DNA of 64,000 bases from the NCBI GenBank assembly GCA_964558655.1, contig CAZLEX010000001.1, forward strand, positions 15,356-79,355. Direction: 5' to 3'. Shown piece by piece: positions 1 to 64,000 of the stretch (its first letter is position 1; each line of letters starts with the position of its first letter). Source of the DNA: an uncultured Oscillospiraceae bacterium (GTDB lineage: Bacteria > Bacillota > Clostridia > Oscillospirales > SIG627). Both the position numbers and the translations under genes were made by a program. The notes below the pieces were generated by a model. That model was given only the letters and a program-made list of their open reading frames with translations. It was not told the origin of the DNA and searched no databases.

Positions 1-147
1 GATACCGGCTACAACTATGTTGATGAATTTTTGGGAGAGCTTTCAAGCGGAAACAATTTTTCGACAAAAAATGTTCTGCAGTCATCAAAAATTGCATTGA
101 CAATACAAAAATGGGCAGATGAACGGAGCGAATATGCAAAAATTTAA
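1..147 (+). CDS. 3' end of an upstream gene (partial, product not assignable)
   Basis: Frame 1 is open from base 1 (DTGYNYVDEFLGELSS...ERSEYAKI) to TAA 145-147 and overlaps the likely nagA start at 134. Not in the ORF track because no start codon is present. Confidence 0.55.
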   Translation, partial: DTGYNYVDEFLGELSSGNNFSTKNVLQSSKIALTIQKWADERSEYAKI

Positions 148-1309
148 ATTGTTTGGCGGAACACTGATTACCCCGGAAGGTCTTCGGGAAGCTGATATAC
201 TGCTCAGTAACGGAAAAATAGAAGAGATTGTTTACAGAAACCGTACGGTATCGACCGATTATTATCCTGTGGACTGTACCGGTTTTTATATCAGTCCCGG
301 TTTTGTGGACATTCATCAGCACGGCGGTGGCGGCAGTGATTATATGGACGACGATCCCGATGCCTATTACAACGCCGTAACATCTCACTTAAAGCACGGC
401 GTTACCTCTGTAATGCCAACCTTGCTTTCGGCAGATCAATCCGATACTTTGCGTGCTGTACGCAGATATAATTCGGCTTGCAATGACAAACGAATAAAAT
501 CCAATTTGCTCGGGTTGCATATTGAGGGGCCCTATCTGTCGCCTTTTCAGGCAGGGGCACAAAAACCTGAGCATATTCGAAATTTTGATGAAGCTGAATA
601 TAGATTTTTGTCCGAAAGTGCACAAGGGAATATTCGTCGCTGGAGCGTTGCTCCTGAATTACCCGGAGTTGAAAACTTTGCAAAATTCGCAAAAGAAAAC
701 CGTATAACACTCAGCATTGCTCATTCGGATGCCGATTTCGAATCTGTAAAAAAAGCATTCTGCATGGGATTTAAACATGTTACACATTTCTACTCATGCA
801 TAAGTACCATTACCCGTAGAAACGGTTTTCGGATTCTCGGCATTTTGGAAGCGGCATACCTCATCGAAGAGATGAATGTCGAGATAATTGCCGACGGCTG
901 TCACTTACCGCTTGACTTGTTGCAATTTATAACTAAGTTTAAAAACAAAGAAAATATTGCTTTGATTAGCGACGCTATGCGTGCTGCCGGTCAAAATGTA
1001 CAAAAAAGTTTTTTGGGCAGCAAAGATGATCCGTTGCCTGTAATTATCGAAGACGGGGTTGCAAAAATGGAGAACCGTCAAGCTTTCGCAGGGAGTATTG
1101 CCACCGGTGATCGCTTAATCAGGACAATGCTGGCAACCGGTATTTCACTTACGGAAGCGGTAAATATGGCTACGGCAAATCCTATTCGAATGATGCACTT
1201 AGATGTAAAGAAAGGAAGTATTATTCCCGGATATGATGCCGATCTTTGTGTATTTGATTCCGATATTCAAATAAAAAAAGTGTTCGTCGGAGGTCTACAG
1301 GTCGTATAA
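134..1309 (+). CDS. nagA: N-acetylglucosamine-6-phosphate deacetylase
   Basis: Motifs PGFVDIHQHGGGG, HIEGPY, VAPE, THFYS, IADGCHL, ISDAM, ATANP..GYDADL. Start set at ATG 134 (ORF track starts at 119). Confidence 0.92.
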   Translation: MQKFKLFGGTLITPEGLREADILLSNGKIEEIVYRNRTVSTDYYPVDCTGFYISPGFVDIHQHGGGGSDYMDDDPDAYYNAVTSHLKHGVTSVMPTLLSADQSDTLRAVRRYNSACNDKRIKSNLLGLHIEGPYLSPFQAGAQKPEHIRNFDEAEYRFLSESAQGNIRRWSVAPELPGVENFAKFAKENRITLSIAHSDADFESVKKAFCMGFKHVTHFYSCISTITRRNGFRILGILEAAYLIEEMNVEIIADGCHLPLDLLQFITKFKNKENIALISDAMRAAGQNVQKSFLGSKDDPLPVIIEDGVAKMENRQAFAGSIATGDRLIRTMLATGISLTEAVNMATANPIRMMHLDVKKGSIIPGYDADLCVFDSDIQIKKVFVGGLQVV

Positions 1310-1444
1310 GATTTTCGCACACTAAATTACATACTTTATTTTGAAAATAAAAGCGGAGCAAACACCGTAAAATCCTTATACAAATTTCATGATTTTTCAA
1401 ACATAACAGCGATTACATTATTTTTGGTTATCGCCGTTATACAA

Positions 1445-1475
1445 ACAACCGTTTGCCAGAAGTGCAAACGGCTGT
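1445..1475 (-). terminator. Hairpin terminator after rpoZ
   Basis: 12-bp arms ACAACCGTTTGC / GCAAACGGCTGT (one G-U pair on the minus strand), about 20 nt past the rpoZ stop. Confidence 0.55.
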
Positions 1476-1495
1476 CATTCTTTTTGCTTTTATCA

Positions 1496-60551: not shown

Positions 60552-60672
60552 GATAATTCCTTGCAAGATAATTATATCTTTTTGCAATATATTTTATTTA
60601 CATAATTAAAAAAATACCTTATTATAGAATATCATACGAATTAAAATTTTGAAAGGGATTTGTAAAATATTT

Positions 60673-63546
60673 ATGTTAAGATTTTATGAAGATTTAAAAC
60701 GGATATCCGAAAACAGATTGCCTCCCCGTGCATGGTACATACCGGAAAATTCAATGACCGATCTTTCGGGAGAATGGGATTTTAAATATTATTCACGGGA
60801 TTTTGACGAAAAAGATGACGATAAGTGGAACAAAATTCCCGTTCCGTCATGCTGGCAGAATTACGGATATGACTCTCCCAATTACACTAATGTACGATAT
60901 CCTTATCCGATTATGCCGCCCTATGTTCCCGACGAAAACCCTATGGGAATATACCGCCGTACTTTTGAAATACCGAATACCGAAGACGACTTTTACCTCG
61001 TTACAGAAGGCGTTTCATCAAATGCTGAAATTTTTGTAAACGGTAAACGGGTGGGATATACACAAGGTTCTCATTTGCAAGCTGAATTTCTGTTAACCCC
61101 TTTTCTTGTTACAGGGACAAATACTTTAATAATAAAAGTGAGAAAATGGTGTTCGGGATCATATCTTGAAGATCAGGATCAGTTCCGTCACAACGGAATT
61201 TTCAGGCCCGTATATCTTCTTCGCCGTCCGACAGGCTGTTTGCGTGATTTTACAATAACTACCGGCTTAAACTATATGACGGTTATTACCGACAAAAAAG
61301 CAAACATAACGCTTTTTGATAAAAATATATCGATTGCGTGCGAAGAAAATACCGATAAAGCCGTATTTCACGTTGAAAATCCGATTCTATGGAATTCGGA
61401 AAAACCGTATCTTTATGAAATTCTGATTGAATGTGACGGGGAAAAAATTCGCAAAAAAGTGGGTTTTGTCTCTTACGGTGTCAATAAAGAGGGTGCGTTT
61501 ACGGTAAACGGCGTTCCCGTAAAACTTAAAGGTGTCAATCATCATGACACTCACCCCCAAAACGGCTGGTGCTTAACCGAAGATGAAATCCGTTATGACC
61601 TTTTGCAAATGAAAAAGCTGAATATAAATACTGTTCGTACTTCTCACTATCCTCCCTATCCGAGATTTTTGGAAATGTGTGACGAACTCGGACTTTATGT
61701 AATGCTTGAAACGGATATAGAAACGCACGGAATTATTGAGCGTACTCCGTTTGCGGGTGGATACGATATGCTCGATTATCCGGACGAATGGTTCGGAAAT
61801 TCTCCCGAATGGAAAGAAAGTTTTCTTGAAAGAATGGTGAGAGCTGTTGAAAGAGATAAAAATTCCGTTTGTATTTTTTCCTGGTCAACAGGCAACGAAA
61901 GCGGATTCTGTCAAAATCACCGCGAAATGATTAAATATCTCAGGGAGCACGATAAAAAGCGTTTGATACACTGTGAAGACGTATCGCGACTTTCCGACTT
62001 AATCGAAAAAAACGGCTATCGTGCCGACAAGGAAAATTATCTCGATTATTACCGTATTCCCGACTTTCATTCAAGAATGTACATTTCTCTCTCAGAGCTT
62101 GAGGAATATGCAAAAAATCCGAAAAAGACCTTGCCGTATTATCTATGTGAGTATTCACACGCAATGGGAAACGGTCCCGGCGATATAGGTGCATATTGGG
62201 ATATAATATATAAGTATCCGAAACTTGTGGGTGGCTGTATTTGGGAATGGGCAGACCATACGGTTATTGAAAACGGTGTAGCTCGCTACGGCGGTGATTT
62301 TAACGACATCACTCACGACTCGAATTTTTGTGCCGACGGACTTGTCTTTTGTGACAGGAGCTTTAAAGCGGGTTCTCTCAATGCTAAAGCGGTATATCAA
62401 AACATTAAAGCACAACTCAAAGATAATATACTTACCGTAACCAATTTATTTGATTTTACAAATCTTTGCGAATATACATTCAAATATGAATCGGTCGCCG
62501 ATAACGAGATATTGGAGACAAAAACTTTAACGCTTAATCTTGAGCCGAAAGGCAGTACCGAAATTGAGGTCAAGACGGCAAAGTCATGCCGATACGGTGC
62601 GTTTGTGAACTGTACTTTATTTGATTCCGACGGATATGATGTTGCGAATATTCAGCTCGAAGTCGAAGCGGAAAAGATTTACGATAAAAAATGCAATGAA
62701 AAGGCCGATATTATCGATAACGGACAGTATTTTGAAGTTTTCGCAAACGGAACACTTTACCGTATTTCAAAGAATCTCGGCAAACTCACGGGAATTGAGA
62801 AAAACAGGCAAGAACTTCTTTCGGCTCCGGTCGACATAACCGTTATGCGTGCTCCTCTTGACAATGAGCGTATCATTAGGTCAAAATGGTATAAAGAATC
62901 GGGAAAGAATCCTTGGGCTGAGGGCTTTGATATTACATGGAACAAGTGCTTATCATGCACGGCACACGAAAATATAATAAGCTGTGAAGGTTCGCTCGCA
63001 GCCGTTTCCCGTTCTCCGTTCTTTAATTACCGTCTCGACTTTGAATTTTTTAAAGACGGAAGTGTTAAAGTGAAGCTTTCGGGAGATGTCAGAGAAAACT
63101 GTATATGGCTTCCAAGACTCGGATTTGAATTTATGTTTCCGAAGGACTGCAGTTCTTTCAATTATTTCGGAAGAGGTCCTCTTGAAAACTTTTGCGACAT
63201 GAAATCTCACGCTCGTAAAGGCTTTTACAACAGCACTGCCGAGCACGAATATGTTAATTACATATATCCGCAGGAGCACGGCAATCACACGGATGTAAGG
63301 TATCTCGACATAGACGGTGCAATGAAGTTTTTCTCAGACGGAGAATTTGAAATCAATGTATCGGAATACACTTCCCGCGATATTATGCGTGCTACACACA
63401 CCGATGAACTTGTAAAAAGCGGTAATACCGTCGTAAGAATTGATTATAAATGTTCGGGAACCGGATCTGCTTCCTGCGGACCGGAACTTGACATAAGTCA
63501 AAGACTTGCGGAAAAACACATAGAGTTCGAATTTTTCATGAAATAA
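60673..63546 (+). CDS. Beta-galactosidase, glycoside hydrolase family 2 (LacZ/EbgA-like)
   Basis: [35 protein letters not shown] (acid/base), [12 protein letters not shown] (nucleophile). Confidence 0.93.
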
Positions 63547-63631
63547 TCCTACCGGCATATGAAATGGACTTGATATTTTTGATAATATGAGTATAATTGT
63601 ATTGTGAAAAATATTTTATGTAGGTGATAAA

Positions 63632-64000
63632 TTGAAAGATTTGACCAGCGGTAATATACACAAAAACTTTTTTTCGTTTGCTGTTCCGATAATGCTGTCC
63701 GGACTTTTGTCGCAGTCTTACAATATTATCGATACGGTCATTATAGGACATTGGTTATCTGACGACGGACTTGCGTCGTCAGGTGCCACTTCCACATACA
63801 TAACACTTATTTCTGCGATACTTTGGGGATTTTCAACCGGAGGCGGGATTTTTTTCGGAATGTTATTCGGGGGAAAGGATTATGAAAGGCTAAAAAATTC
63901 TGTTTTTACAACTGCGGTAATTTTGTTGGGCTCATCGCTGATAATAAGTCCCCTGTCAATTATTTTTAAAGACGAAATTTTTGGTTTTCTCAAAATAGAT
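63632..64000 (+). CDS. MATE family efflux transporter (5' part, runs off the window)
   Basis: TTG start after AGGTGA; KDLTSGNIHKNFFSFAVPIMLSGLLSQSYNIIDTVIIG..GLASSG; the frame is open to the window end. Confidence 0.85.
   Translation, partial: MKDLTSGNIHKNFFSFAVPIMLSGLLSQSYNIIDTVIIGHWLSDDGLASSGATSTYITLISAILWGFSTGGGIFFGMLFGGKDYERLKNSVFTTAVILLGSSLIISPLSIIFKDEIFGFLKID

Follow-up and report, generated by a model that had tools for sequence, protein, structure and literature searches.

The tetramer ACGT is almost absent from the DNA analysed here, a stretch of 64,000 nucleotides (hereafter the window; C1:15356-79355) from a Clostridia metagenome-assembled genome (MAG) of 1.68 Mb in 67 contigs, 98% complete, and the depletion runs through the whole genome, from which about 97% of the ACGT sites, or about 4,400, are gone. 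We consider it probable that the word was selected against by an ACGT-specific Type II restriction-modification (R-M) system, probably one of the 5-methylcytosine (m5C) type, that is now either lost or unbinned; both the past action of this system in the lineage and its present state are what we infer from the pattern of loss and from related genomes that carry a candidate system. The window contains the dnaA-gyrB-gyrA origin region, together with polA, alaS and a parAB locus, and the best public matches of its GyrB, at no more than 65% identity, come from uncultured Clostridia/Eubacteriales MAGs of animal and human guts. Neither a 16S gene nor other rRNA genes were found in the MAG.

Four ACGT sites were counted in the window, where one would expect 216 by base composition and 149 by a second-order Markov model, for an observed/expected ratio (O/E) of 0.02-0.03. 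The original prediction, made from the letters of the window by eye, had claimed near absence with three sites (4287, 11646 and 61979) against roughly 200 expected from composition; the claim was confirmed and even understated, although the site at 61370 had been overlooked and the true count is therefore four. GCGC had been noticed as sparse too, correctly (8 sites against 71-73 expected), but with a tally of four that is half the real number. Among other palindromes in the window, CTAG is missing altogether (0 against 22 by the Markov model and 216 by composition), GGCC is low (22 observed, 87 expected), and TCGA (201/276), CCGG (186/351) and CGCG (58/90) are only mildly low, at O/E 0.5-0.7, so that the loss is not general to CpG palindromes, as had also been stated. 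Over the whole genome, ACGT (150 sites, O/E 0.033), CTAG (0.053), GCGC (0.127) and GGCC (0.259) have the four lowest ratios of all 256 tetramers, and the Markov-corrected ACGT ratio, about 0.03 in window and genome alike, is far from 1. The related words are not affected in this way, with TCGA at 0.73-0.78 and ACGA, ACGC and ACGG at 1.0-1.4. Moreover, each of the ten NACGTN classes is down to 0.01-0.04 of its density in the nearest species (genome G006; GyrB 90% identical, median amino-acid identity of orthologues 72%), and since all are reduced alike, the target is the bare 4-bp word.

The 63 core contigs are depleted to a uniform extent. With four exceptional contigs set aside, there are 113 ACGT in 1.654 Mb (68 per Mb), 25 of them no more than 1 kb from a contig end and 2 inside tRNA-Leu genes. 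Whereas the core has 0.7 ACGT per 10 kb, normal densities of up to 26 occur at C44:5500-8849, C61, C66 and C34:800-8900 and to the ends of C6, C30, C31, C22, C21 and C19. The second half of C44, with 17 ACGT in 3.3 kb, lies beside a TnpV transposon gene, and C34 holds 8 of the 32 CTAG in the genome. These contigs and contig ends look like recent imports or strain-variable DNA, so that ACGT density serves in this MAG to distinguish native DNA from recent imports.

The ACGT depletion is not shared by close relatives. In samples of 5-20 kb around gyrB, those of congeners being 7-20 kb long, ACGT O/E was 0.67-1.25 in 11 genomes of the same genus and 0.44-1.32 in 9 of the same family, and 300 kb of the nearest species contained 1060 ACGT against 1029 expected, with GCGC at 1.04. 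Hence, the loss of ACGT and GCGC dates to the branch leading to this species alone, which is rather long. The earlier idea that the lineage had long carried an ACGT system holds to the extent that the branch is long, but with none of the 11 congeners depleted, the depletion arose on the branch of this one species. The depletion of CTAG and GGCC is a different matter, being old and clade-wide: nearly every genome sampled in the family has no or almost no CTAG, and GGCC stands at a low 0.04-0.3 in the genus and in the greater part, though not the whole, of the family. Other words are missing elsewhere, such as AGCT and CATG in G001, GATC in many genomes, GCGC in L018 and GGCC in L023, and the fact that relatives deplete different 4-bp palindromes is the patchiness expected of mobile R-M systems. 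Strong ACGT depletion is itself sporadic, seen at 2 of 80 distant gyrB loci (a third stands at 0.34) and 1 of 43 metagenome loci; the known cases outside this species are G117, G422, G384, G262, G337, G041, G042 and L276, and the depleted genomes that can be placed, which excludes G041 and G042, fall in at least six genera and three families. A metagenome scan with ThyA for closer strains returned nothing above 75% identity.

Evidence for selection comes from the reading frame. In 1,205 long open reading frames (ORFs), coding-sequence ACGT is reduced 30- to 90-fold over the three codon phases (the slash marks the codon boundary): 13 observed against 1196 expected for ACG/T, 31 against 2075 for xAC/GTx, and 43 against 1351 for xxA/CGT. 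The codons adjust to their neighbours accordingly. ACG makes up 0.3% of threonine codons when T follows and 20-34% when another base does; NAC codons account for 0.3-2% ahead of GTN, where the nearest species has 65-79%, and for 57-64% ahead of other codons starting with G; and the arginine codon CGT falls to 0.7% after an A-ending codon from 32-39% after C, G or T, being replaced by CGC, CGG or AGA or avoided by a different third base in the preceding codon. GCGC runs in parallel, with CGC at 0.7% after G-ending codons and GCG at 2.3% before C. These numbers bear directly on the explanation by mutation only, in which an orphan or R-M-linked m5C methylase would have let ACGT decay to ATGT or ACAT by deamination, in the absence of any selection by restriction, as CpG decays in vertebrates. 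Such a process would account for the nature of the parS changes described below, every one of which is a CpG transition (13 positions in 12 sites of six genomes), and a vsr pseudogene and the wrecks of two C5 methylases indicate that the lineage once had m5C. It would also account for the residual sites, which are retained 2-3 times better in xxA/CGT, where the transitions are non-synonymous, than in the other phases, and for ACAT and ATGT, whose frequency is 1.59 times that of the nearest species, an increase that roughly matches the amount of ACGT lost; yet the genetic code itself compels most of the rise in ATGT, because NAC/GTN can become only NAT/GTN. What makes mutation only an unlikely explanation is, first, the deficit in xxA/CGT, where transitions give TGT (Cys) or CAT (His) and where 31-fold depletion was nevertheless reached through other codons, which argues for selection against the word itself; and, second, that synonymous mutation at the flanking A and T creates and removes ACGT at equal rates, so that a net loss requires selection. 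Thus, of the two agents originally offered, persistent m5C methylation or restriction, restriction pressure on ACGT is supported, whereas deamination has left its trace but m5C decay alone is insufficient for the loss. Codon-context statistics were used in place of a site-by-site ancestral reconstruction against the nearest species, which was dropped because at 72% orthologue identity the synonymous sites are saturated.

Under selection by a resident R-M system, each unmethylated site would risk a double-strand break, be it after replication, at the establishment of the system or at its loss, and site-free variants would be favoured at any position that allows a synonymous or tolerated change. 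If the methylase made 5-methylcytosine, deamination (CG to TG or CA) would supply such variants fastest. The outcome would be a genome in which ACG is not found before T, NAC not before GTN and CGT not after A, and in which the central CG of parS is lost.

Two ACGT-depleted members of the same family point to a candidate for such a system. G117, with 1 ACGT against 71 expected in 40 kb, has two tandem C5 methylases, and G422, from another genus and chosen for its altered parS site, has 0 against 92 in 59 kb and a single C5 methylase that shares 77% identity with the 357-aa enzyme of G117. When 400 genomes of the order were searched with the 357-aa protein, homologues of at least 68% identity were present in just three more, and the depletion predicted for these before measurement was found in each: 1/66 (observed/expected) in G384, 0/49 in G262 and 2/42 in G337, with other palindromes near normal. 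All five carriers of this methylase clade therefore have ACGT O/E of no more than 0.05, as against 0.70-0.97 in genomes with distant homologues (39-43% identity), and by phase the carriers’ ACGT (0/74, 0/237 and 3/108) repeats the pattern of the present genome. Near the methylase in G117, G384 and G422 there is a small XRE-type helix-turn-helix gene that resembles R-M controller genes in size and position, and four of the carriers have a convergent ORF, a putative nuclease, of either 244 aa or 279-291 aa (Table); the two kinds are unrelated to each other, and neither has a Pfam or NCBIfam match. Beside the G337 methylase, no conserved neighbour was recognised. Judged by gene order and predicted products, the methylase, controller and convergent ORF would have the layout of a Type II cassette; the cassettes lie at G117:C20:645-2782, at G422:C280:4133-6698 and, in G262, at about C1:1334258-1336205. 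Going from signature to gene has in this way yielded a candidate ACGT methylase clade and two unannotated putative nuclease families, possibly new isoschizomers of HpyCH4IV or MaeII. These two and TaiI are Type II enzymes that cut ACGT; the recognition sequence proposed here is likewise ACGT.

A consequence of the depletion concerns the chromosome partitioning site parS, the canonical core of which contains ACGT. Exactly three 16-mers in the genome have all 14 outer parS bases perfect, and none of them has a CG centre (Table). In the family, 44 of 50 other genomes have sites with the 14 outer bases, and among the matches listed all are the canonical TGTTTCACGTGAAACA except one site each in G117 and G422, both depleted of ACGT. 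Expressed as variant over total sites, the count is 3/3 in this genome and in G337, 3/4 in G384, 1/1 in G041, 1/2 in both G117 and G422, 0/1 in G262 and 0/2 in G042, with the caution that kinship among the genomes makes formal statistics unsafe. The centres of the 12 variant sites, with 13 changed positions in all, read TG, CA or TA. ParB presumably tolerates these centres: its helix-turn-helix recognition helix is unchanged here, and no substitution common to all depleted lineages was found that would speak for co-adaptation. It is quite possible, and we put it forward tentatively, that ACGT R-M systems of gut Clostridia repeatedly force the rewriting of the otherwise invariant parS core from CACGTG to CATGTG, CACATG or CATATG, and that this genome is the end state, with all three sites converted and the R-M system gone. 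A literature search on parS and restriction avoidance turned up nothing relevant. The parallel changes in independent lineages amount to a natural experiment on the tolerance of ParB at the parS centre. In addition, ahead of parA and parB and flanked by the second and third parS sites, the window encodes a 246-aa protein (18852-19592) with a ParB_N domain only and 44% identity to its counterpart in the nearest species, which may be a Noc-like paralogue.

Table. Coordinates of residual sites, parS sites and R-M-related features; positions without a contig name are those of the window
Feature	Location	Strand	Remarks
Residual ACGT	4287..4290	-	In DNA polymerase III delta-like gene (4159-5226, minus); phase ACG/T, from ORF coordinates
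Residual ACGT	11646..11649	+	In ORF 11209-11688; phase xxA/CGT (CpG transitions non-synonymous)
Residual ACGT	61370..61373	+	In GH2 beta-galactosidase gene (60649-63546); phase xAC/GTx
Residual ACGT	61979..61982	+	In GH2 beta-galactosidase gene (60649-63546); phase xAC/GTx
GCGC sites	4385, 17254, 21190, 22381, 46017, 54838, 54850, 55831		
parS, centre TG for CG	18000..18015	.	TGTTTCATGTGAAACA; position and spacing match a canonical CG site of the nearest species
parS, centre TA	18725..18740	.	Both CpG positions changed
parS, centre CA	19602..19617	.	Beside ParB_N-domain gene (18852-19592), parA (19829-20593) and parB (20647-21528)
Convergent 244-aa ORF, putative nuclease	G117:C20:939-1673; G384:C57:5190-5924		91% identical to each other
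Convergent 279-291-aa ORF, putative nuclease	G422:C280:5240-6115; G262:C1:1334258-1335097		63% identical to each other
HinP1I-type GCGC R-M fossil	C3:84126-84514 (L093:10118-10515)	-	Between thyA and UPF0029 gene
Wrecked island	C44:814-4557 (L092)		vsr pseudogene, HNH_2 protein, 138-aa ORF, M.HhaI-like methylase, Drt4 reverse transcriptase

The original prediction had the ACGT methylase or R-M system encoded in the genome outside the window, and on this point it did not hold as far as the assembly shows. Searches of all six frames with protein families, followed by Pfam, NCBIfam and PDB look-ups, gave no intact C5 methylase in the bin, only two wrecks of HhaI/HinP1I type (on C3 and C44), neither of which can be assigned to ACGT. 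The systems that are intact have other targets. On C15:32332-34357 (L096:7333-9358), an RE_CfrBI nuclease and an N4/N6 methylase go with CCNNGG-type hexamers at O/E 0.13-0.44 (CCCAGG 0.13, CCGAGG 0.16, CCGCGG 0.22, CCATGG 0.35, CCAAGG 0.40), which suggests a BsaJI/SecI-like system that is not strictly CCWWGG; C47 has an HpyAIV-family nuclease and a CcrM-like methylase for GANTC, with GANTC words at about 0.7. That the specificities of these two resident systems agree with depleted words supports reading the ACGT signature in the same manner. As candidates for the ACGT enzyme, both were rejected on the same grounds, the C15 methylase as the RE_CfrBI partner that matches the CCNNGG/CCWWGG depletion instead, and the C47 methylase and its 277-aa neighbour as the HpyAIV-family and CcrM-like pair. 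Also rejected were the two Type I HsdM/HsdS sets of C36 and C49, the D12 orphan methylase beside ArdA on the small contig C59, and, on C26, an N6_N4 pseudogene of an adenine methylase like YhdJ. Immediately before the HpyAIV-family nuclease gene, at C47:5456-5515, a run of 20 codons matches the C-terminal end of the ACGT-cassette controller at 80% identity, probably as part of the GANTC system’s own controller gene. The words GGATG (0.38), GACCC (0.32) and CTCGAG (0.22) are low as well, and no system was paired with them.

For GCGC, by comparison, the responsible system has left a corpse. The C3 fossil is a stub of about 30 residues around C5-methylase motif I fused in frame to residues 143-247 of an R.HinP1I homologue; the nuclease part is identical to PDB 1ynm at about 75% of aligned residues (1ynm match 7.9e-29), with PF11463 matches of 9.6e-28 and 4e-14 and PF00145 positions 1-52 in the same open frame. 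The nuclease is without its N-terminal 142 residues and has a frameshift near residue 182. The remnant is a dead chromosomal GCGC system, and it explains the GCGC depletion. On C44, the methylase of the wrecked island is closest to M.HhaI (E 7e-44) and has lost its first approximately 57 residues, including motif I. Both wrecks are thus homologous to the HinP1I/HhaI GCGC systems (R.HinP1I, PDB 1ynm, cutting G^CGC; M.HhaI, PDB 1mht) but dead. The break points of the C3 stub and the C44 fragment both lie near HhaI residue 41-42, and the stub is too short for the two to be assigned as halves of one gene. The C44 fragment was tried as the ACGT methylase and rejected, since genomes with 66-69% homologues (G210, G313 and G101) have ACGT and GCGC O/E of 0.58-1.04; it shares only 31-33% identity with the 357-aa clade. 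Elsewhere in the island, a wrecked m5C locus that has become a defence island, the HNH_2 protein is distantly like phosphorothioate-DNA restriction enzymes, and Drt4 is an antiviral reverse transcriptase. In G084 (L180), an HNH gene 43% identical to that of C44 abuts a 5′-truncated C5 methylase, and such HNH genes may insert into or replace methylase starts, or may encode a methyl-directed enzyme incompatible with methylases.

An ACGT-specific R-M system therefore has in its favour a depletion that is specific to the word and the lineage and present in all phases, and a signature shared with carriers of a candidate cassette; in this respect the original inference is supported, and what it lacks is a cognate gene in the bin. 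Several points count against it. No ACGT methylase or R-M system, intact or remnant, was found in the 98%-complete bin by family searches and tblastn, including tblastn with the ACGT-linked methylase, controller and nuclease proteins of the relatives; at that completeness, this falls short of proving absence. The ACGT specificity of the 357-aa clade is deduced from a correlation in 5 genomes. G041 and G042, both ACGT-depleted, gave no C5 methylase match, which means either that carriage is not universal among depleted genomes or that cassettes are often missed by binning. Finally, the ACGT-normal small contigs and contig ends are compatible with recent imports and are silent on whether restriction is active at present. 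An ACGT ratio as low as that of present carriers argues for the presence of the system or its very recent loss. The missing gene and the two MAGs without a C5 methylase would be as expected if selection on ACGT came from something other than R-M, such as nucleases encountered when DNA passes between strains, a defence system of a non-R-M kind or an ACGT-binding factor. We regard this as rather improbable, since a chromosome-wide, context-independent depletion fits a 4-bp endonuclease better than a regulator, all five genomes with the methylase cassette share the signature, and the parallel GCGC depletion has the fossil of a resident R-M system. An artefact of assembly, binning or sequencing chemistry, as might be feared in a 67-contig MAG without rRNA genes, can be dismissed as next to impossible, because in intact genes synonymous codons stand in, one by one, for the missing sites, parS keeps 14 of its 16 bases, small contigs and contig ends of the same assembly have normal ACGT, and independent assemblies of other species repeat the pattern.

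Avoidance of restriction-site palindromes is a classic signature of prokaryotic genomes, reportedly described by Karlin and colleagues, by Gelfand and Koonin in 1997, by Rocha et al. in 2001 and by Rusinov et al. in 2015. The present case resembles it in that the loss is lineage-specific and in that depleted words match resident or former systems (CCNNGG with RE_CfrBI, GCGC with the HinP1I fossil); it departs from the typical case in that the assembly has no cognate ACGT system. To our knowledge, an O/E of 0.03, with zero or near-zero counts in relatives, stands at the extreme end of such reports. The closest parallel is Helicobacter pylori, where M.Hpy99XI is an m5C methylase for ACGT (of the HpyCH4IV isoschizomer system), ACGT occurs at 53-295 per Mb, 65-71% of strains in two populations have the methylase, and the loss, mainly to ATGT and ACAT, has been ascribed mainly to deamination (PMC10423294). 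The two cases have in common the word, a similar G+C content, a similar residual density (68 per Mb here) and ATGT and ACAT replacements that are mostly silent. Unlike in H. pylori, no methylase was found here, the non-synonymous phase has been emptied too, and the species is the sole depleted member of its genus. We would thus place the ACGT case as another example of site avoidance driven by R-M, the new elements being the methylase clade and the recurrent rewriting of parS.

The lesson of this genome, in our reading, is how fully a single 4-bp specificity can reshape a chromosome, from the sites themselves to codon-pair usage in all three phases and to the core of parS, with a scar that persists, or at least is visible, without the causative system. 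If the reading of parS is true, an essential cis-element bears the lasting imprint of a selfish one, and "ghost" R-M specificities, along with two unannotated nuclease families, would be readable from genome signatures alone.

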